DNA of 25,483 nt from Candidatus Hermodarchaeota archaeon (GCA_048885865.1 JBHLLF010000038.1:1-25483), one strand, 5' to 3'. Positions 8,692 to 18,752 are shown, counted from the stretch's first letter. Notes: generated by a model from the letters alone, not told the origin. Translations and numbers: made by a program.

Positions 8692-9579
8692 CTATAAATA
8701 TGGAACCACGAAGTAACCTACAAGAAGTGTAGACAGCAGCGAGAGTGTCAACAGGACCCAAATTGGCTTGCTCCAACGAAATATCGTGCTTCCATCAAAC
8801 CCCGGAATTGGTATCATGTTGAATAGACCAAGGAATGAATTCAACAGCATCGCGTAGATGACTATGAAGTCAATTGGGAAAGCTAGGACCCCTGTTGTGA
8901 TTACGATTATCTCGGCAGTGATGAAGAGTAGACCTGCAACTATCAGATTGGAAAATGGGCCTGCCACGGTCGATTTGGCATAATCATCAACATCTCTTAC
9001 GCCCCCAACCGCCATAACTCCAGTACCGAAAATGGGTATCGCGAATAGAATTGCGACTGCAGAGAGATAGTATCCTTGCATCGTCATACGGAAGTGCGCG
9101 TACATTCCATACTTCTGAGCAACGAACTTGTGCGCAAACTCGTGAATCATGAATGACAACCAAAAAACAGAGATTAGAGCTAATGGAAACCACCATAGAC
9201 CAGCTTGGAAGTATCCAGGAAGTGCTAGTATGCCATTGAGGATGCCGATAGGTGGTCCTCCTATAATGGATATGCTAACAAGAATGGTTAGAACTGAGGC
9301 AATCCCGAGATCTTTGATCTCTGTTTCTGTGAATCTTTTCCTCCTTGGTTTCCTCACCTTCGCCGGTCGTGGCTGAGCAATGATGTCTTCATCGTAGTCT
9401 TCATCATCATATTGGCCTGTGAATGAATCAGCGATTCTCTTTCGCGCATCATCCTTGACCTTTTGCATCGCAGCGCATCCATGCATCTCTGGAAGTCTAT
9501 GGTTAGCGCAATAAATTCCTCTACAATATGGACAAACAAATGTCAGGTCTTCTTTGCCGCATAAGGAGCAGTTGGCCAT
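8692..9579 (-). CDS. AN1-type zinc finger fused to M50 (site-2) intramembrane metalloprotease
   Basis: CSLC..FVCPYC..YCANHRLPEMHGC (AN1), HEFAH in a TM helix, AGPFSN and FNMIPIPGFDG (M50). ATG 9579 preferred over ORF start 9681. Confidence 0.88.
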   Translation of the reverse strand: MANCSLCGKEDLTFVCPYCRGIYCANHRLPEMHGCAAMQKVKDDARKRIADSFTGQYDDEDYDEDIIAQPRPAKVRKPRRKRFTETEIKDLGIASVLTILVSISIIGGPPIGILNGILALPGYFQAGLWWFPLALISVFWLSFMIHEFAHKFVAQKYGMYAHFRMTMQGYYLSAVAILFAIPIFGTGVMAVGGVRDVDDYAKSTVAGPFSNLIVAGLLFITAEIIVITTGVLAFPIDFIVIYAMLLNSFLGLFNMIPIPGFDGSTIFRWSKPIWVLLTLSLLSTLLVGYFVVPYL

Positions 9580-9715
9580 AGTTGTTGCCTCTTTGAGTTC
9601 TCCACTTCTGCCCATATTGGCATTCTTAAGAGTATTCTTAGTGGAAGCCTGCCGGCTTTCTTGAGTGGGAATAATGGGCACTTCTAAAGTTATTAAGAAA
9701 TTCCTGCATCTTAGT

Positions 9716-9730
9716 AAAGGTTCATATACT
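9716..9730 (+). promoter_or_regulatory. Putative BRE/TATA promoter of hsp20-cdc48
   Basis: AAAGGTTCATATACT within the AT-rich divergent intergenic region. Confidence 0.4.
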
Positions 9731-9763
9731 TTCTAATGTAATTTTCCAACAAACGCTTGAATT

Positions 9764-9840
9764 CTAGGCTTGTCAGGAGAGACTGCGGCCTGTATTTGAA
9801 ACGGCCTCGCATGAAGCCTAGTGTCCTGGAAAGCGGGAGG
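9764..9840 (+). promoter_or_regulatory. Structured 5' leader of hsp20 (candidate RNA thermometer)
   Basis: Perfect 8-bp inverted repeat CTAGGCTT (9764-71)/AAGCCTAG (9814-21) enclosing a GGCC/GGCC stem. Hairpin TCCTG-GAAAG-CGGGA (9824-38) overlaps the SD GGGAGG. Confidence 0.4.
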
Positions 9841-9851
9841 AAACAAGTTTA

Positions 9852-10283
9852 ATGATTGACGATGACGAATTTCAGAAGATTTTCCGTAGAATGATAGAGC
9901 AGTTCTTCGGCACCTTTGGGATGCAGCCCGGAGGAAGCGGGATAGACGGATTGTGGGACAGTCCTTCGGAAGAATTGGATGAGGTACCAATAGATCTACC
10001 TCATGAAGGTGCCAGAGTTGAAAGGATAGACCTTGGAGACACAGTCATACTTGTCATGGACAACTGTGCTATTGAAGAGGGTCTCCAAGTGACAGTCAAA
10101 GGGAGAGTCGCTGCAGTTTCCTACAGCCCTGACAACCTACTCCAGACATTTGAAACTCCCTTTGCCATTGATGCCAATCGTTCTTTTGTTTCGTGCCGCA
10201 ATGGGGTTGCTGAGATCCGACTGGAGAAGGATGAGAGTAATAAGGAATCTGATGAACTAGAGAGATTGTTGAGATTTGAATAG
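9852..10283 (+). CDS. Hsp20/alpha-crystallin-like small heat shock protein (divergent)
   Basis: Archaeal sHSP-like N-terminus (DDEFQKIFRRMIEQFFG) and C-terminal V.CRNGVAEIRL.K, directly upstream of cdc48 as is common in archaea. Confidence 0.7.
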   Translation: MIDDDEFQKIFRRMIEQFFGTFGMQPGGSGIDGLWDSPSEELDEVPIDLPHEGARVERIDLGDTVILVMDNCAIEEGLQVTVKGRVAAVSYSPDNLLQTFETPFAIDANRSFVSCRNGVAEIRLEKDESNKESDELERLLRFE

Positions 10284-10296
10284 AGGGTGTGTTTGA

Positions 10297-12525
10297 ATGG
10301 CAGAAAGCGCAGATAATTCGATTAGATTGAAGGTAGCGGCAGCAATGCCAAAGGATCAAGGTCGTGGGATAGTACGGTTGAACACAGAAGTGCGTGACCT
10401 TCTTCAAGTCCGGTCTGGAGATTACGTCCTACTAAAGGGGACCAGGGAAACCGTTGCAGTATGTTGGCCAAGCCTCAAGGAGGATGAAGTGCTTGATATG
10501 GTCCGAATGGATGGTTTCATTCGTGCAAATGCTGGAGTTAAGCTTGGGGAAATGGTAGAAGTTGGGACAACCACCGTTCCTGACGCAACTAGGGTTGTTC
10601 TAGCGCCAAGTCAGCCCGTAAGATTTCAACCGGGCTTTGAGGACTACATACAGCAGCAAATAATGAACCGGCCTATGACAAGAGGAGATATCATACTGAT
10701 AGCATCGATAGGACAGGGTCTTCAGTTCACTGCAACATCTGTGGGTCCAAGCAAGCATGTTAGAGTAACTGCATCAACAAAGCTCGAGGTTCTCACTCGA
10801 CCTGCAAAACCTGAGGAGATTTCAATACCGCAGGTGACATATGAAGACATAGGTGGTCTAAGCAAGGAGATACAAAAGATCCGAGAAATGGTTGAGCTCC
10901 CCATAAAATCGCCCGAGCTCTTTAGACGTCTCGGAATATCACCTCCAAAAGGTGTCTTGCTACATGGTCCGCCTGGAACAGGCAAGACGCTCATTGCGAA
11001 GGCAGTGGCAAATGAATCGGGTGCAAACTTCAAGACGATTAATGGACCAGAGATAATGTCCAAATTCTACGGTGAGTCTGAACAGAAACTGAGGGAGGCC
11101 TTTGAGGAAGCTGAGAAGAATGCCCCAAGCATTATCTTCATCGACGAACTTGACAGTATTGCACCAAAGAGGGCGGAAGTAACGGGAGAAGTTGAGAGAA
11201 GGGTTGTTGCCCAACTACTTGCTCTGATGGATGGACTAGCGGGCAGAGGACAGGTCATAGTAATTGGAGCCACAAACCGGGTGGATGATGTTGATGAGGC
11301 TCTAAGAAGACCAGGCAGATTTGACCGCGAGATTGAGATTGGTGTGCCTGATCGACAGGGCCGTCTTGAGATACTTCAGATTCATACCAGATCCATGCCC
11401 CTCGAGGAAGATCTTGATCTTCAAAGGTTGGCTTCAGTCACTCATGGATTTGTTGGTGCGGACCTGGCGGCTCTAGCTAGAGAAGCCGCAATGGAAGCAC
11501 TCCGCAGAGCGCTGCCTCATGTAGATCCTGAAACTGGAGATATTCCTCCAGATGTACTTCGTGATCTCTTTGTGACACAAAATGATTTCGATATTGCACT
11601 CTCCGGTATCTCACCTTCTGCTCTAAGGGAGGTGCTTGTGGAAAAACCCAATGTGCAATGGGATGATATTGGTGGACTGGAAATTGCGAAAAAAGCGCTA
11701 TTGGAGTCCGTAGAAGGTCCTCTCAAGTATCCGGATGTTTTCACAGAAATGAAGATTAGGACCCCCAAAGGGATTCTTCTCTATGGCCCGCCAGGCACTG
11801 GAAAGACTCTACTCGCTAAGGCAGTCGCCACTACGAGTGAGGCCAACTTCATCTCAATCAAGGGACCTGAGATATTCAACAAATATGTGGGAGAATCAGA
11901 AAAAGCTGTGAGAGAGATATTCAAGAAAGCTAGACAGGTTGCTCCATGTGTAATCTTCTTTGATGAGATAGATGCGCTGCTTAGTCAGCGTGGGCAGCAA
12001 GATGAGACTGGAGTGACACAGAGGATTGTCAACCAGTTCCTAGCTGAGGTTGATGGGCTTCAGACTCTGCAGAATGTGCTTGTCATCGGCGCTACGAATC
12101 GCCCAGATATTATGGATCCAGCAATGCTTCGTCCTGGTCGATTCGACATCCTGTTGAATGTCGAAGCACCTGACAAGGATGCGAGATTGGAAATACTCAA
12201 GGTGCACACAGTTGCAAGGGGCATTCCGGGTTCGGAGAACCTCGATTTGGAGAAACTTGCAGAAAAGACAGCCAACTTCTCTGGAGCTGACATTGAAGGC
12301 CTAGTAAGAGTCGCAGTGATGATTGCTGTCACTGAGGGTTCAACACCAACAAATATCCAGATGAAGGCCAGGAAAATTGAAATGAAACATTTCGAAGAAG
12401 CTCTGAAGACAGTGCGGCCCACTTTGACACCGAAAGTGTTGGAATACTATGAGAAGATTTCTGCGGCTATAGAAGGCCGCCAAATTGAGCCAGAAAGACC
12501 GACCAGATCTGATTTGTACGTCTAG
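10297..12525 (+). CDS. cdc48: Cdc48/p97/VAT-family AAA+ ATPase
   Basis: N domain (D.GRGIVRL, VRMDG..R.NAG), two AAA modules with [19 protein letters not shown] and RPGRFD, and a C-terminal LYV (HbYX). Confidence 0.97.
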
Positions 12526-12534
12526 TTCATTGTT

Positions 12535-12568
12535 GTGGAGAGTCCCCTGGCCCGACTCTCCACCATTT
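12535..12568 (+). terminator. Perfect 10-bp hairpin after cdc48 (terminator or processing/stability element)
   Basis: GTGGAGAGTC (12535-44) / GACTCTCCAC (12554-63), 9-nt loop, followed by a short pyrimidine-rich tract. Confidence 0.55.
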
Positions 12569-12628
12569 CCTCAGGGTCGCAACACTTTTGGCATCCCTTT
12601 GACACATCACTCTAATGAGTGACCTACA

Positions 12629-15121
12629 ATGGGGCAACGCTGGATAGTTAATCTCTGCCCATTTCTGCATTTTGACAACTCAAGAGTGCAGACGTATGAA
12701 CATAATGTCAGCATTGTTTCTTGGAATGTCAAAAGCATTCTGGACTATCTTGAAGTGAATCCAAGTCACAAATTCTGTGTGGACCAAGTGACACTTCTTG
12801 AGGGATTCAAGCGACTATTTCCCAACTACTGGGACTCCCTTCATCAAAGGGTTTTGGAGGGGAGGATTGAGATTGTGGGTGGCATGTATGTGATGCCTGA
12901 CCTCATCATCCCTGATGGAGAATCCATAGTTCGCCAATTTATGTTTGGCACTCGCTTCGTCAGAGAGGAACTAGGAGTTGAAGTGAAGACGGGGTGGGCA
13001 ATAGATTCCTCGGGTCACTGCTCTCAAATGCCCCAAATTCTACGGCAATGTGGGATTGATTCGTATGTGTTTTGGAGGGGAATGCCATATGATTCGCCGA
13101 CTGAGTTTGTGTGGAAAGGACCTGATGGCAGTCGAGTGAATGCTGTGTGGCTTTCAAATGGTTACGACAGCTCCGCATGGCTATCGGAGAATCTTAGAGA
13201 AGCTTACAGTAATCTACTCAAAGTTGCAGAATTGGCTGGAGCAAAGGCGTCATCCCAGAATGTGCTTGTGCCTGTTGGCGGCGAGCTTGTGCCTCCGCTA
13301 CCACATTTAGCTGACATTGTTTCCCACTGGAATGAAACTTTTCCAGACATGCGAATGTCGATTGTAACTCCAAGGGAGTTCACTGAGAAAATCAAAGCAG
13401 TACAAGCTTCTCTGCCCATGATGTCTGGAGAATTGGCATCTGGCCGATTCTCATCTGCGAGATCTGGCGGTTTGAGTGCCAGAGTGAAGCTGAAGCAGAT
13501 GAATCGCCAGCTAGAATCTATGCTTTATCTCACCGAGCTGTATCTATCATATACCGGTGATTTGAACAATACAAGGGTGTTGGAGAACCTCTGGCTAATA
13601 CTTCTTTTCAATCAAGATCACAATATCATTAGAGGCACCATTGCCGATGAGCCCTATCAGTTCGCTGAGCGGAGATTCAAGCAAGCGCTAGACCAGGCTG
13701 GCGAGATTCTTGAAGATGCCATAAGTGGTGTTGCATCTCAAATCTCCATTGATCCCTCCAAGGCATCATTTGTAGTATTCAATCCTCTTCCTTGGCGCCG
13801 GAGTGATTTGACTCGGCTTTCCATAGATCTATCTAAGATTCACACGCCCTTCTTTCGAATTCATGATTCAAATGGAAACAGTGTTCCGTATCAAGTAATT
13901 GGGGACATCGCCAAGGGAAGCCCCGCAGATGTCCTTATTCTTGCATCAGATATGCCAAGTCTTGGATATAGAGTCTACACTATTGAGCCCTCAGAGAAGC
14001 CTCTCGAATTTGATTCTTCATTACGCACTGGGAACAATTGGGTAGAGTCGGATGATTTCATCGTCGAATTTGATGATTTCAGTGGTGCGATGACAAGAGT
14101 GTTTGACAAACGCAATCAGTTTGAAGCTCTGCGCGGCCCCGGTAATTATCTAACAATGGAAAGTGATGTTGGAGACCTCTACAGATACGCAAGATCCACG
14201 CTTTCAGATGAGAAATCTGATCTCACAACATTGCGGCATTCAGGCAAGCTTTCAGTCGTTGAGTCAGGTCCGCTTCGAGCTACAGTAATAGTTGAGGGAG
14301 ATTTCAAGGATTCCAAGAGAGTCCAACGGGTTGTTTTGTACGAGGGTCTCCGTAGAATCGACCTTGAAACAGAACTGAATTTCAATGGCCATGGCAAGCG
14401 TGTCAGAGTCAACTTCCCTCTTACAGTACTTGCAGACAATGTGGTAGTCGGCTCTCAATTTGGTGCAGAGTCCAAGACCGCCACTCCAAATGATCCTCAG
14501 GAATGGGCTGATGCCAACCAGGGACTCTTTTCTGGACTTGATTGGGTGGATTGCTCAGGACCAGAGTTTGGGATAGGGCTATCAGCATTTGGCCTTCATG
14601 AGTTTCACTTCCGAGATGGAATGCTCAGTGTAACTCTCCTGCGAAGTGTGGAACAGCTATCATATGGGCGAGATGATGATGTTCTTGAGTCAAAGACTGC
14701 AAATGAGAAAGGCGAACATTCATTTCGGATGTCTATTATTCCACACAAGGGCTCTTGGAAACAAGCTTCAGTGTGGAAAGCAGCTGCTGAGCACAGACTA
14801 CCGTTAATTGGCTATCCGCTAGAAGCACCCGGCGGAACGCTGCCTCTTGAGAATTCATTTCTGAAAATTGAGGGAATGGAACTTGGTCTTTCCTGTTTCA
14901 AGGTTGGTACTTCCGAAAAGGAGTTCATTATTCGACTCTATGAAATGGCAGGTGAGAACGGACGCGCAAATCTTGAGTTTCCCTTTGGAGTATCCAAGGT
15001 CAGCCTGGTGGATCTCCGTGAGAATGTCATTGGAGACCTGCCAACATCTGGTTCAACTGTAACAATTCCAGTTGATGCTCACACGATAATCACTCTCAAA
15101 GTTACCAAAGCATCTCGCTAG
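12629..15121 (+). CDS. Glycoside hydrolase family 38 (alpha-mannosidase-like) protein
   Basis: HxD, GRIEIVGGMYVMPD..IPDGES..RQ, WAIDSSGH..QMPQI, EFVWKGPDGS, NQDHNIIRGT, VFNPLPW.R, TLLRS and IIRLYE give the full GH38 N/middle/C architecture. Confidence 0.9.
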   Translation: MGQRWIVNLCPFLHFDNSRVQTYEHNVSIVSWNVKSILDYLEVNPSHKFCVDQVTLLEGFKRLFPNYWDSLHQRVLEGRIEIVGGMYVMPDLIIPDGESIVRQFMFGTRFVREELGVEVKTGWAIDSSGHCSQMPQILRQCGIDSYVFWRGMPYDSPTEFVWKGPDGSRVNAVWLSNGYDSSAWLSENLREAYSNLLKVAELAGAKASSQNVLVPVGGELVPPLPHLADIVSHWNETFPDMRMSIVTPREFTEKIKAVQASLPMMSGELASGRFSSARSGGLSARVKLKQMNRQLESMLYLTELYLSYTGDLNNTRVLENLWLILLFNQDHNIIRGTIADEPYQFAERRFKQALDQAGEILEDAISGVASQISIDPSKASFVVFNPLPWRRSDLTRLSIDLSKIHTPFFRIHDSNGNSVPYQVIGDIAKGSPADVLILASDMPSLGYRVYTIEPSEKPLEFDSSLRTGNNWVESDDFIVEFDDFSGAMTRVFDKRNQFEALRGPGNYLTMESDVGDLYRYARSTLSDEKSDLTTLRHSGKLSVVESGPLRATVIVEGDFKDSKRVQRVVLYEGLRRIDLETELNFNGHGKRVRVNFPLTVLADNVVVGSQFGAESKTATPNDPQEWADANQGLFSGLDWVDCSGPEFGIGLSAFGLHEFHFRDGMLSVTLLRSVEQLSYGRDDDVLESKTANEKGEHSFRMSIIPHKGSWKQASVWKAAAEHRLPLIGYPLEAPGGTLPLENSFLKIEGMELGLSCFKVGTSEKEFIIRLYEMAGENGRANLEFPFGVSKVSLVDLRENVIGDLPTSGSTVTIPVDAHTIITLKVTKASR

Positions 15122-15200: not shown

Positions 15201-16067
15201 TTGAGCGATTTCTATCCTATCTCGCCTTTGGTTGGCATCACCAATACAAGCTATGCGGCACAAGCAGGAGTTATGGACGAAAAGTGGGCATGCCGTGTGG
15301 TTAGAGGCAAGAAGATTCTAGTCGAGAAGACTATTCATGACTTAGATTTGGAATCCTATGTGGGAGTAATCTATGGTCACATAAGACTTGAAGGCCTCAG
15401 CAGACATGCGGTGGCTCAATGCGCCGGCCGACTAATGCAGTTTTCGAGGAAATATCAGACTGCAGGTGTGTGTCCCAACTATGAGATTCCTGACCTTGTA
15501 TATGATGATGGCAGTTCTCCCACAGCTCCTTCTGAGGGGGAATCTGAGATTCAAGCCGAGCCTTCTACAAGTATTGATGATATCTCTCTCACTGGCGTAG
15601 GTGCCATACCCAAGCTGGAGTCCCTGAACAGTACGGAGCTCTGGAAACACGCAATCCATTCCTACGGCGTGATGTTGTCAGAATTGGCAACATATGGCGG
15701 AACTCTTCCCTCGGGCCATCTTGAGGTTATGTTTGAGAATGTGGCAAACGAATTGGTTAGAATGTGGAGCGCGACTGGTGATGGAGTTGACATTCTTTCC
15801 GGTTTTGGAAATATGATCCTCAGTTGCTCAAAAGAAGCTCAGCTTCCTGCAGCTCCAGTACACCAAATGAAGATAGAAACGGGACGTTGCGAGCTTCTAG
15901 CAATGGCCAGACAAATCGATCCCGATGGGAGGAAACTTCCAGCGGGCTATCCGTGTGCATTCCATGAAAAGGTGGCAGAGAAGGTTAGCAAACTTATCGG
16001 AGCCAAAATTGAAATCAATACTTCTTCAACTGGGTGCATTGTTCAAATTGCTCTAGACCTAGGCTAG
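15201..16067 (+). CDS. Two-domain protein with C-terminal V4R/Bet3-superfamily-like, putative Zn-binding domain
   Basis: C-terminal IETGRC...YPCAFH...IEINTSSTGCIVQI resembles V4R/HNOB-fold Cys spacing. Acidic S/P linker and an unassigned N-terminal domain of about 95 aa. TTG start after GAGG. Confidence 0.45.
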   Translation: MSDFYPISPLVGITNTSYAAQAGVMDEKWACRVVRGKKILVEKTIHDLDLESYVGVIYGHIRLEGLSRHAVAQCAGRLMQFSRKYQTAGVCPNYEIPDLVYDDGSSPTAPSEGESEIQAEPSTSIDDISLTGVGAIPKLESLNSTELWKHAIHSYGVMLSELATYGGTLPSGHLEVMFENVANELVRMWSATGDGVDILSGFGNMILSCSKEAQLPAAPVHQMKIETGRCELLAMARQIDPDGRKLPAGYPCAFHEKVAEKVSKLIGAKIEINTSSTGCIVQIALDLG

Positions 16068-16158
16068 AATATCGCCGACAGGCTTAAATCGCTCCTCCCG
16101 CCTGAGGTAGAATTAGACGAGACCGCGTGGTAAGAGTCTCGATTAGGAGCTAACTCAA

Positions 16159-16440
16159 TTGGCTTATCTCACATGGCGTTCTTATGTCCGCTCAGGGCCG
16201 GTATGTCTTGGAGCACTCTTGGTAATAGCGGGTGCAATTATTGCACTACTGCCATCCATTGACGTTCAATACGCCTTCTTTGGCGAAATGACGGTTCTCA
16301 TTGGTGCAGGTGTTGCTGTGCTAGGGCTTATCTTTATCCTGGTCGGATTCTTCTTCACTAAGAAGAAGCGCGATTCAGTTTTGGCACCAGTGGATACGAA
16401 GGTCGACGACACACCACCTCCACCACCGCCGATGGATTGA
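16159..16440 (+). CDS. Small two-TM membrane protein with C-terminal polyproline
   Basis: Two hydrophobic helices, KKKR stop-transfer and a PPPPPPMD tail. AGGAG before TTG 16159, with a terminator-like element downstream. Confidence 0.75.
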   Translation: MAYLTWRSYVRSGPVCLGALLVIAGAIIALLPSIDVQYAFFGEMTVLIGAGVAVLGLIFILVGFFFTKKKRDSVLAPVDTKVDDTPPPPPPMD

Positions 16441-16469
16441 ATCGAATTCATCGAACCACTCTATAATCT

Positions 16470-16521
16470 GGGTCTGTGGACCGTGATTGGTCCATAGCCC
16501 CATTTTGTCTCTTTTTCATTT
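16470..16521 (+). terminator. Hairpin + T-rich terminator
   Basis: GGGTCTGTGGACC / GGTCCATAGCCC stem followed by TTTTGTCTCTTTTTCATTT. Confidence 0.6.
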
Positions 16522-16611
16522 CATCTTGAATTGCTAATTCACCTCCATCCAGCAAATCCCTATATGTAACCTGAGCCAGTTTGAGTTTAGAATTGACAAA
16601 GGTAGGGAACT

Positions 16612-16902
16612 ATGACATTCCTAGAATACAGAGACAACCAGTTTCATGAGTGTTCAGGCACGCCATCCTCGGAGATCACCTTGAAGGTTGACGATGCCCA
16701 GAGGAAATTGATACTCACCGTCCCTGGTGGAGTCGGAATGATTGCAAGGCGTTCAGCAGAACGTGGAGCGCGATCAATTCAGAAGTCAGGCTTTCAGACA
16801 GCCAGGAAGGGCCGTATTGGAGCTGGGTACGAGCTTGTCATTGAGGGTCATGGTGGCTCTCTACCTGATAGGCTGAAACACTCTCCACGAGAAGTATACT
16901 AG
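16612..16902 (+). CDS. Single-domain gelsolin/cofilin-like protein (ProGel-like)
   Basis: ITLKVDDAQRKLILTVPGGVGMIARRSAERGARSI parallels the gelsolin core of 20511..21428 (VVCVVDDETKSIYLWKGTQAGIRRKFIGARVATNL). 96 aa, with its own TATA-like element near 16560. Confidence 0.5.
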   Translation: MTFLEYRDNQFHECSGTPSSEITLKVDDAQRKLILTVPGGVGMIARRSAERGARSIQKSGFQTARKGRIGAGYELVIEGHGGSLPDRLKHSPREVY

Positions 16903-16973
16903 AGCATGACTAATGACTATGACCTACTTAGCAAAGAACCGATAGTCCAGAGGGAGCTGGAGGTCGAGGAACC

Positions 16974-18752
16974 GTGTCAGATGAAGATGTAAGGCGTATG
17001 ATTGAGGAAGCAACAAAGGAGTCTCTAAGACAGTCCTTTACTGAAGCTGGACGGAAATTCATTGAGGCCGCTGAAACCTCGGAGCGAAGAGGTGACTACG
17101 AGGGTGCAGATAAGCTATATCGTCAGGCCGCTGATGCATATGAGAAGGCTGCGGATAAATATAGGACTGGCAAAGGATTCAAGAATTCAGCCATGAATAT
17201 GTGTGCAGCTGGCGATGTCTATTCAGAGCTGGGAGAGTCGCAGAAGGCCGTTGAATCCTATGGCTATGCCGCAGAGGATCTATTTGCAGCAGCAGGAGAA
17301 CACCTACTCTGGGGCGAAGACGCAGAAACCGCCAAGGGTACTGCCCTTGCAATGGCTGCGTGCATGATACTCCTAATGATTGGGAGAGAGGCCGACTCCT
17401 TCTATCGAGCCCGTACCTTCTCAGCAGAGAATGCTTCGAAGCTTAGATTCCCTGCCATTGTGCGCCTAAGTCAAATCCCTCAGATGATTGAAACCTCGAT
17501 TCAAGCAATGGACCTCGAAGGCTTTGCCACTGCAGAAACCGCGGCAGTGACAGAGTTGAAAGCAGCCCTGGCTAATGCTAATGCTCAGGAGTTCACCAAA
17601 TATGTGGATAAAGGACTGGATATGGTCAGAGAGATTCTTAGAGGCAAGCTCAGGGTTCCTAGGCTTGTTCCCCAATTGGCTCTGCCAAACGACATGACTT
17701 TTTCAGAGGAATTCCCAATTCGCGTCCTAATTCAAAACGCAGGTGACGGCGAAGCTACAAACGTGAACCTCGAATGGCATATTGATGAAGACCTTGTAGT
17801 CATGTCAGGTGAGCGGAAGAAATCCATTCCGATGCTTCCGCCCGGTGAATCCCTTGACATAGCAGTTGTTGTAAAGGCGAAGGAGGGCATAATGGGCATA
17901 AAGGAATACAGCATTATGATGAAGGGGGTCTACAGTGATAAACTGAAGACTGAATACTCACTGCAAGCAGGGCCCGGAACACTTGTGCTGAAGGACTTCA
18001 AAGAAACCGAGAAACTTCAACAGGCTCTTGATGTTACAGATACTCGATTAGGACTTCTTACCTCCACCGTTGAGGACTCACCATTTGAAAAAGAAGTGTT
18101 ACATGGTGTCGTTTCATCCATTTCCAACTCAGTGAACCAGGCACGCACCTATCTCGATGAAGGAGATATCCCCTCTGCACGAGGCTGCGTTCATGTGGTC
18201 AACGAGATGGTTGACAAGATTGATGCAATCCTTGGCGATGAGGAGCTTATCGCAAGAGTGAACGAAGCCAAGGAGGCGAAGAAGCGATCCTATGCAAAAG
18301 TAATGCTTCAATCCGCCAAAGAAGAGATTGATTCTACACTGAAAGGTAAGCAAGCCAAGATTGAGGCAGCCTCTCTTGAAGCGAAAGTTGATTGGGGCAA
18401 CGAAGCTGAATCCAAGAAAGCGCTTGCTACTCTCATTTCTGGTGCACGTGATAAGACATCCAATCTAATCGGGGAATTGGAGGCTCTAAAGAGTGAACTG
18501 CCCTCCGCTGCCGATTCAGTAGATCCAACTGAAGGCGCCCTCAGAACCAAACATCGTACAATGGTAGAAACAGCAGTGAGTAAACTATCTGGGATACGTG
18601 CGGAGCTTGAACGAATGTCAAGCGATAGGGTACTTGCTGTAGGTGTAGCGCCAGAAACTCCGGATAAAGTGGCATTAGCACAGAAGCTTCTGGACGAGCT
18701 TATTTCAGATGTTAATGCAATTCTAGAATCAAAGAAGACAGAAACTGGGTAG
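16974..18752 (+). CDS. alpha-SNAP/TPR-like solenoid + Ig-like (CARDB-type) domain + helical/coiled-coil C-terminus
   Basis: A..F..AA, A..Y..AA..Y..AA..Y and A..Y..AA repeats, then F.IRV.IQNAGDGEATNV.L..LPPGES..I (Ig-like beta sandwich), then long amphipathic helices. GTG start with GGAGG upstream. No signal peptide or clear membrane anchor. Confidence 0.6.
   Translation: MSDEDVRRMIEEATKESLRQSFTEAGRKFIEAAETSERRGDYEGADKLYRQAADAYEKAADKYRTGKGFKNSAMNMCAAGDVYSELGESQKAVESYGYAAEDLFAAAGEHLLWGEDAETAKGTALAMAACMILLMIGREADSFYRARTFSAENASKLRFPAIVRLSQIPQMIETSIQAMDLEGFATAETAAVTELKAALANANAQEFTKYVDKGLDMVREILRGKLRVPRLVPQLALPNDMTFSEEFPIRVLIQNAGDGEATNVNLEWHIDEDLVVMSGERKKSIPMLPPGESLDIAVVVKAKEGIMGIKEYSIMMKGVYSDKLKTEYSLQAGPGTLVLKDFKETEKLQQALDVTDTRLGLLTSTVEDSPFEKEVLHGVVSSISNSVNQARTYLDEGDIPSARGCVHVVNEMVDKIDAILGDEELIARVNEAKEAKKRSYAKVMLQSAKEEIDSTLKGKQAKIEAASLEAKVDWGNEAESKKALATLISGARDKTSNLIGELEALKSELPSAADSVDPTEGALRTKHRTMVETAVSKLSGIRAELERMSSDRVLAVGVAPETPDKVALAQKLLDELISDVNAILESKKTETG

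Follow-up and report, generated by a model that had tools for sequence, protein, structure and literature searches.

Three probable functional units, including a class-wide small heat-shock protein-Cdc48 gene pair, at an AN1-protease locus of Thorarchaeaceae

Contig JBHLLF010000038.1 of assembly GCA_048885865.1 (C38 in our numbering), which belongs to an 87%-complete genome of the Thorarchaeaceae (Asgard), was analyzed over its whole length of 25,483 nucleotides (nt; hereafter the window) with respect to four neighboring genes. These encode an AN1 zinc finger fused to an M50-family intramembrane metalloprotease (AN1-M50), a small heat-shock protein (sHSP), the AAA+ unfoldase Cdc48, and a member of glycoside hydrolase family 38 (GH38). 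An original prediction, made from the sequence of the window, had read them as one clustered quality-control pathway for membrane glycoproteins, resembling endoplasmic-reticulum-associated degradation (ERAD) in eukaryotes. Taken jointly, our results are best explained by three separate units rather than one pathway, a reading to which we assign a probability of about 0.55: (i) the sHSP-Cdc48 pair, which is the sole part of the four-gene set that looks like an operon, (ii) the AN1-M50 protease, probably with a transcription unit of its own, and (iii) a GH38 gene that comes and goes within the family.

The four open reading frames (ORFs) were recovered at the positions given in Table 1, where the AN1-M50 gene is divergent from sHSP-cdc48 and the GH38 gene comes after cdc48; in gene content and gene order the original prediction was thus accurate. 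The order AN1-M50 / sHSP-Cdc48-(GH38) is near-universal within Thorarchaeaceae, as part of a block of about 20 kb that is syntenic across the family from a DUF2797 gene via Topo VI to a gene for a protein of the TPR-Ig (tetratricopeptide repeat-Ig) type. Downstream of cdc48 (window positions 15201-18752) follow genes for proteins of 288, 93, and 96 amino acids (aa) and the TPR-Ig protein, a string that is the same in every Thorarchaeial locus whose contig allows its inspection. Since the whole block of about 20 kb is conserved, the Thorarchaeaceae genomes count as one observation and not as many independent ones, and gene order inside the family therefore says little on these four genes in particular. 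Readings of the locus as ERAD-like that draw on the gene order of one family overcount, because the block as such is syntenic while the glycosidase is not constant in it.

Table 1. Positions of the genes and candidate regulatory elements in the window, with the basis of each assignment.
Feature	Positions	Strand	Basis	Remarks
Fusion of AN1 zinc finger and six-helix site-2-type (M50) intramembrane metalloprotease	8692..9579	-	Pfam, invariant motifs, AlphaFold2 (AF2) model	Mechanical ORF extends to 9681
Near-invariant intergenic block, candidate shared promoter/operator	9687..9760	unassigned	Seven-sequence alignment	Function conjectured from the alignment
Structured sHSP leader (nested GC-rich hairpin), then GGGAGG ribosome-binding site	9764..9851	+	Sequence and comparison	
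Divergent small heat-shock protein (alpha-crystallin domain)	9852..10283	+	Profile match, AF2/Foldseek, alignment	143 aa
Cdc48/VAT-type double-ring AAA+ unfoldase	10297..12525	+	TIGR01243 and Pfam	C-terminus LYV
10-bp perfect inverted repeat GTGGAGAGTC / GACTCTCCAC, 9-nt loop	12535..12563	+	Read from sequence	Possible terminator or attenuator
Cytosolic GH38 alpha-mannosidase-family protein	12629..15121	+	Four Pfam domains	103 nt after cdc48; lineage-specific occupant of this slot

The sHSP and Cdc48 genes form a tight, class-wide pair that is adjacent and co-oriented. The distance from the sHSP stop codon to the Cdc48 start codon is 13 nt in the window, and in the 19 other Thorarchaeial loci in which both genes were recovered 12-39 nt separate the end of the sHSP ORF from the point where the tblastn match to Cdc48 begins. 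When searched singly, the 143-aa protein had no match to the Pfam HSP20 model or to an NCBIfam model. A profile of 20 of its orthologues matched the alpha-crystallin domain of Sulfolobus solfataricus Hsp20.1 (4rzk; E = 6.7e-9) and Methanocaldococcus jannaschii Hsp16.5 (E = 8e-4), the AF2 model contains a seven-stranded beta-sandwich (predicted local distance difference test score, pLDDT, 82-95 over residues 56-126), and small heat-shock proteins head the list of its Foldseek matches (4rzk, E = 2e-4; TM-score by target 0.66-0.69). The profile of orthologues and the fold matches together identify the protein as a real though divergent sHSP, so that the name Hsp20 first given to it holds despite the failed single-sequence search. 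Its most conserved part in the alignment of orthologues is an N-terminal helix, MIDDDxFxxxFRRMIEQFF, and its C-termini (LLRFE, YLKIE, or YLRSL) follow a conserved pattern that is L-x-[IFL]-like and not the canonical I/V-x-I/V.

The Cdc48 protein scored 1033 bits against TIGR01243 (cut-off 802.65) and contains the CDC48_N and CDC48_2 domains and two AAA plus lid domains. Its C-terminus reads ...DLYV, where L-Y-V agrees with the hydrophobic-tyrosine-X (HbYX) tail that had been assigned to it, and docking to the 20S proteasome, the genes of which are present in the same genome, is predicted from this tail. Orthologues end mostly in G-Y-[IVM], with the penultimate Tyr conserved and the hydrophobic position not. 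The use of HbYX as a distinguishing mark of this Cdc48 was dropped: the second Cdc48 of the genome ends in GYI, and the HbYX-type tail is therefore a trait of the family and not specific to the window copy.

An operon hsr1-cdc48-hsp20 in Archaeoglobus fulgidus is said to have been described by Rohlin et al. in 2005. More generally, HSP20 and CDC48 have been linked under the archaeal heat-shock regulators Phr and HSR1 (PMC5852551; PMC10653856). The Thorarchaeial pair resembles the hsp20 and cdc48 unit under Phr (Pyrococcus furiosus) or HSR1 (A. fulgidus) in the pairing of the genes, in their presumed co-expression, and in a Cdc48 with an N domain, two AAA rings, and a Tyr-X tail. It differs in an sHSP that does not reach the Pfam HSP20 threshold and whose N-terminal helix is unusually conserved, and in operator-like repeats and a leader hairpin upstream that are Thorarchaeial-specific. 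By analogy we infer that sHSP-Cdc48 is the Thorarchaeial version of the euryarchaeal heat-shock pairing. As part of such a two-gene stress and proteostasis operon the sHSP would hold unfolding proteins, and the Cdc48 hexamer would unfold the proteins so held and could pass them to the 20S proteasome via its Tyr-X tail.

The candidate elements upstream of the sHSP gene are consistent with a stress operon under specific regulation. In an alignment of seven intergenic regions from the genus of the window, the 74-nt block (Table 1) is better conserved than the flanking positions 9580-9681. It contains a TATA-like sequence TTCATATAC (9721-9729) between the arms TTAGTAAAG (9711-9719) and CTTTCTAA (9729-9736) of an imperfect inverted repeat. 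Loci across the Thorarchaeia have a comparable nested hairpin ahead of the sHSP start; RNAalifold applied to these leaders recovered the inner stem alone, in which three of six pairs were compensatory (both sides changed). These elements may represent a candidate operator and structured leader, or an RNA thermometer. Their form varies among lineages. In the more distant Thorarchaeia (L048-L077) a TATA box, tandem repeats of the type ACCAnnTGGT, and a nested hairpin GAAGCCCC...GGGCGG...CCGCCC...GGGGCTTC immediately ahead of the ribosome-binding site were observed, and the same place in the genus of the window (within 9687-9851) differs by having CTAGGCTT...AAGCCTAG around GCGGCC...GGCC.

The third unit, the GH38 gene, encodes a protein with all four Pfam domains of the family (N, middle, C, and C2), the catalytic one at the very N-terminus and no signal peptide before it, in agreement with the original prediction; prokaryotic GH38 proteins usually lack a signal peptide (PMC2815779). 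It shares this lack, the arrangement of its four domains, and the retained metal ligands and nucleophile Asp with prokaryotic cytosolic GH38 proteins such as SpGH38 of Streptococcus pyogenes, the Enterococcus faecalis enzyme (3lvt), TM1851 of Thermotoga maritima, and MngB of Escherichia coli. Alignment to solved enzymes showed that metal ligands and nucleophile are kept (H14/D16 in HFD, D126 in WAID, and H330). The protein differs from these relatives in that the HD motif is HN (NQDHNII) and the GD acid/base motif is GE (PVGGEL), as aligned to 7ufr and 5kbp/3lvt. The NCBIfam model for mannosylglycerate hydrolase scored 234 bits on it, relative to a cut-off of 1138. Sugar-catabolic genes are absent from its neighborhood. 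A second GH38 protein of the same genome (974 aa; L145:4245-9340, on contig C6 of G000) is encoded after galT and galK, in a sugar-catabolic context.

An orthologue of the GH38 gene (at least 47% identity) was found in 23 of the 44 Thorarchaeaceae genomes searched. Of 24 distinct loci in which cdc48 and the conserved gene that comes next (g14) are both visible, 14 contain GH38; in Baldrarchaeum (family f8) and in a further Asgard family, f15, GH38 had no match. The string sHSP-cdc48-g14-g17 is constant with or without GH38, so that the gene looks inserted or lost. In one genome (G170) the orthologue is split into two adjacent ORFs (C4:261858-264333; query residues 2-404 and 408-826), which likely reflects a frameshift or a decaying gene. 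The 10-bp hairpin of Table 1 begins 10 nt past the cdc48 stop codon, with a run of four T about 22 nt beyond it, and may terminate or attenuate transcription ahead of GH38. GH38 is thus facultative and restricted to Thorarchaeaceae, nothing ties it to its neighbors, and it would most likely serve in the catabolism of sugars, mannosides, or compatible solutes, apart from the other three proteins.

These results bear directly on the ERAD-like pathway as first proposed, in which the protease would clip membrane glycoproteins, Cdc48 would extract them, the proteasome would degrade them, and GH38 would trim the released N-glycans. The four genes are indeed contiguous in the window and at the 14 loci just mentioned, and among solved structures the cytosolic Ams1 of Schizosaccharomyces pombe (6lz1; E = 4e-34) is nearest to the GH38 protein by sequence. 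The bacterial cytosolic GH38 proteins, which come next, are about equally close, however, and the HD to HN and GD to GE replacements also count against the pathway. So do the orthologue not found in 21 of the 44 genomes or in the families f8 and f15, the gene order of the rest of the locus, which is the same in lineages without GH38, and the hairpin that separates GH38 from cdc48. Of the enzymes that would release N-glycans, a GH85 endo-beta-N-acetylglucosaminidase (ENGase) was not found in the 87%-complete genome, and no PNGase was identified, the candidates being just two generic transglutaminase-core proteins. The change in S-layer N-glycans upon deletion of the AN1-rhomboid protease RhoII in Haloferax volcanii (PMC9263693), to which we return below, speaks for a glycoprotein connection, and yet the full four-gene pathway seems to us very improbable.

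For the AN1-M50 protein, the second unit of the region, the evidence for a site-2-type protease comes from domain matches, motifs, and modeling. The zf-AN1 domain scored 37 bits (Pfam cut-off 27.9), and Peptidase_M50, matched in the C-terminal motif region including NxxPxxxxDG, scored 27.3 bits, barely above its Pfam cut-off of 27.2. Across 30 aligned homologues H146, E147, and H150 of HEFAH (HExxH), which ends the second membrane helix, are invariant, and so are N254, P257, D262, and G263 of FNMIPIPGFDG, the NxxPxxxxDG motif, which supplies the third zinc ligand in site-2 proteases. The AN1 ligands C16, C19, C24, H27, H33, and C35 are likewise invariant, and the first pair, C4 and C7, is nearly so. 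In the AF2 model (pLDDT 83) a disordered linker with acidic and basic stretches follows a small finger and leads to a helical membrane core. The finger superposes on the AN1 finger of Cuz1 (5ij4) with a root-mean-square deviation of 1.2 over 40 residues. The top structural matches of the whole model include RseP, SpoIVFB, MjS2P, and RasP (Z 8.0-9.7, 129-150 residues aligned, 14-25% identity), and Foldseek returned a weak match to 3b4r (E = 0.015); since unrelated helical bundles have similar scores, the match to the site-2 protease fold is supportive and not decisive. The database homologues are about 295 aa long and positions 9580-9681 are poorly conserved among the seven same-genus sequences, which together place the true start probably at Met35 of the mechanical ORF (ATG at 9579). 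According to the positive-inside rule, the AN1 finger and the basic linker RKPRRKR are predicted to lie on the cytosolic side.

The AN1-M50 fusion has hundreds of homologues in Thorarchaeota, other Asgard lineages, and Bathyarchaeia, listed at NCBI as "AN1-type zinc finger domain-containing protein" or "site-2 protease family protein". In architecture and motifs the window copy is the same as this archaeal family, from which it is set apart by its neighbors alone, and it would act as a widespread archaeal site-2-type intramembrane zinc protease from its own transcription unit. To our knowledge no substrate of the family has been established experimentally, and a literature search combining AN1, site-2 protease, and archaea returned nothing relevant. 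In one Asgard genome (G033; L040:1397-2455(-)) the AN1 finger is C-terminal, not N-terminal, on the M50 domain, pointing to a separate fusion event or to a swap of domains.

The original prediction had connected this protease to Cdc48 on the premise that eukaryotic AN1-finger proteins link p97 and the proteasome, a premise that proved overstated. Cuz1 contacts Cdc48 via its C-terminal ubiquitin-like (UBL) domain and not via AN1, its AN1 finger is necessary and not sufficient for binding to the 26S proteasome, and the subfamily Cuz1/AIRAP/ZFAND1 is defined by an exposed LDFLP motif between Cys pairs (PMC5035049). The Thorarchaeial finger reads GKEDLTFV in place of LDFLP and thus lies outside this subfamily, and neither a UBL domain nor a VCP-interacting motif (VIM) was found in the AN1-M50 protein, the remainder of which is linker and membrane domain. 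The rule that AN1 implies a Cdc48 cofactor is therefore not transferable, and the finger hints, at most, at proteasome contact by analogy. A co-fold of the AN1 finger and linker (residues 1-92) with the Cdc48 N domain (residues 1-190) and two Zn gave a score of 0.00, which speaks neither for nor against binding. As a whole, the locus shares with the eukaryotic ERAD and AN1 cofactors (Cuz1/ZFAND1, AIRAPL; RHBDL4-p97; Ams1/MAN2C1) the protein families, that is, an AN1 finger, an intramembrane protease, Cdc48/p97, and a cytosolic GH38. Unlike them it has no ubiquitin ligase, UBL, VIM or VCP-binding motif (VBM), SHP motif, or retrotranslocon, the LDFLP motif is absent from the finger, and the GH38 linkage is not conserved.

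A closer precedent than the eukaryotic cofactors is RhoII of H. volcanii, in which an AN1 finger is fused to a rhomboid intramembrane protease (PMC4343526) and the deletion of which alters S-layer N-glycans (PMC9263693). By analogy, this knockout effect links AN1 proteases to glycoprotein biology. RhoII and AN1-M50 are alike in carrying a cytosolic AN1 finger on an archaeal intramembrane protease and differ in catalytic type, a serine rhomboid as opposed to a zinc M50 enzyme. AN1 hence seems to recur as a cytosolic accessory on intramembrane proteases of archaea. We know of no reported Cdc48 link for RhoII.

The genomic context of AN1-M50 was surveyed over about 10 kb on each side of the gene in 16 Asgard families that have it. 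Cdc48 was found beside it in three of them, Thorarchaeaceae, f15, and Baldrarchaeum, and within this distance no Cdc48 was found in the 13 other families or in 42 further loci labeled mostly Bathyarchaeia. The expected synteny across Asgard genomes thus held in part, for the AN1-M50/Cdc48 adjacency in three families, while the GH38 linkage was confined to Thorarchaeaceae; AN1-M50 is not a general neighbor of Cdc48. In the Bathyarchaeia-type loci the common flanking genes are mre11/rad50 on one side (about 20 of 42 loci) and rpS10 on the other (27 of 42); as conserved partners of AN1-M50 these recurrent neighbors are not informative. In f15 and Baldrarchaeum AN1-M50 is immediately preceded by a co-oriented gene (L121:8721-9518(+); L038:6059-6805(+)) whose product is a cytosolic CE4 polysaccharide deacetylase (PF01522). 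A glycan link via this deacetylase is not general, since the Thorarchaeial orthologue is on another contig (G000:C16:7114-7920).

Several observations weigh against the separation into three units. In the genus of the window, the AN1-M50 and sHSP units have a 272-nt intergenic region in common, with the near-invariant block inside it, so that co-regulation of the two would be possible. No clear TATA box was seen by inspection in the 103-nt gap between cdc48 and GH38, so that read-through from cdc48 may occur, and in all contigs long enough to show it the GH38 orthologue occupies the slot after cdc48. The AN1-M50/Cdc48 adjacency is also more persistent than plain inertia predicts, with an orientation that is divergent in Thorarchaeaceae, convergent in f15 (three genomes), and tandem in Ca. 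Baldrarchaeum yapensis (Cdc48 follows). Furthermore, the neighboring Cdc48s are not all the same paralogue. A tree of the N-D1 region resolved three paralogue groups, of which one includes the Thorarchaeial neighbor, on a long branch, and the f15 neighbor (support 84/88), and another the Baldrarchaeum neighbor. Forcing all adjacent Cdc48s into one clade, a group named after the tree had been seen, cost 154 log-likelihood units (approximately unbiased test, p = 0.0002). The adjacency therefore arose at least twice, or the paralogue was displaced in place. This suggests a repeated juxtaposition of AN1-M50 and Cdc48; the probability of a second chance adjacency across the approximately 16 families is, as a rough estimate, near 5%, which is suggestive and not conclusive.

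Directly before the Cdc48 of the Thorarchaeial group, an ORF of about 90 aa was observed in f15 and Baldrarchaeum (L121:12674-12940(-); L153:1209-1484(+)), with 44% identity between the families. It matched no Pfam family significantly (best E 0.013) and was not found in the genome of the window. A relationship to the Thorarchaeial sHSP was rejected (hhalign probability 0.1%), and from its position the ORF may encode a Cdc48 partner of a new kind.

The common intergenic region would also suit regulatory intramembrane proteolysis, in which AN1-M50, like RseP or S2P/ATF6, would free a membrane-tethered regulator that switches on sHSP-cdc48. The divergent genes, the conserved block between them, and the palindrome around the TATA-like box in the genus of the window point this way, as does the classical role of site-2 proteases as signaling enzymes (PMC9263693). 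The arrangement is not general, however: in 13 of 27 Thorarchaeial loci the AN1-M50 gene is parted from the sHSP gene by a FAD-oxidoreductase gene or larger inserts, so that the shared promoter region is lost there, and in the other families the genes are convergent or tandem. With no membrane-tethered transcription factor evident at the locus, and with another operator-like repeat in front of the sHSP gene in more distant Thorarchaeial lineages, we consider such a circuit highly unlikely. As to the inserts themselves, the gene found at about half of the Thorarchaeial loci encodes an FAD-dependent oxidoreductase of about 470 aa (Pyr_redox_2, FAD-depend_C; e.g., L048:8427-9881(-)), and at one locus (L047) an ORF of 2076 aa is inserted between the AN1-M50 and sHSP genes.

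More weight has to be given to a membrane-protein quality-control module of three genes, without GH38. Here AN1-M50 would clip damaged or orphan proteins near the cytosolic face, the AN1 finger or the linker would recruit Cdc48 (or Cdc48-20S), Cdc48 would extract and unfold the products, and the sHSP would keep fragments soluble. The occurrence of AN1-M50 beside Cdc48 in three families, with three orientations and two Cdc48 paralogue groups, argues for such a module. So do the predicted cytosolic position of the finger and its basic linker, the repeated fusion of AN1 to archaeal intramembrane proteases (at either end of M50, and in haloarchaeal RhoII; PMC4343526), and the proteasome contact of eukaryotic AN1 fingers (PMC5035049). 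Against it stand the 13 Asgard families and 42 Bathyarchaeia-type loci without a nearby Cdc48, the use of UBL by Cuz1 and the missing LDFLP motif in the Thorarchaeial finger, and the fact that AN1-M50 and Cdc48 never form a fixed operon. Inertia contributes as well: the roadblock pair g19-g20 persists near AN1-M50/Cdc48 in f15, so that inheritance explains part of the adjacency pattern. On this balance the three-gene module is rather unlikely as an account of the whole region, and three separate units remain our preferred reading. What stands of the clustered pathway originally proposed is the sHSP-Cdc48 pair and the AN1-M50/Cdc48 adjacency in three Asgard families, and what finds no support is the membership of GH38, the weight placed on synteny within one family, and the generality of the adjacency.

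The contributions made here are a census of the presence and absence of GH38, the assignment of the adjacent Cdc48s to paralogue groups, the confirmation of the 143-aa protein as an sHSP, and an examination of the premise drawn from Cuz1. The locus shows that Thorarchaeia retain the classical archaeal stress pair of sHSP and Cdc48. The AN1-M50/Cdc48 neighborhood is old and recurrent in Asgard archaea, enough so to merit a binding test, and may reflect cooperation in membrane-protein clearance, which we hold to be a minority possibility, albeit a serious one. A still more tentative and, in our view, unlikely extension is that AN1 site-2 proteases and Cdc48 constitute an ancient Asgard module for the extraction and degradation of membrane proteins, a prokaryotic forerunner of ERAD-type dislocation in which the cytosolic AN1 finger would hold Cdc48-20S (or the sHSP) where intramembrane cleavage takes place. 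If this were true, selection for cooperation between AN1 proteases and Cdc48 would explain why the two genes came or stayed together, with a Cdc48 paralogue that varies among Asgard classes. If the link between the two is real, it would provide the first function of an AN1 finger outside eukaryotes and a testable prokaryotic model for a pre-eukaryotic origin of Cdc48-driven membrane-protein extraction.

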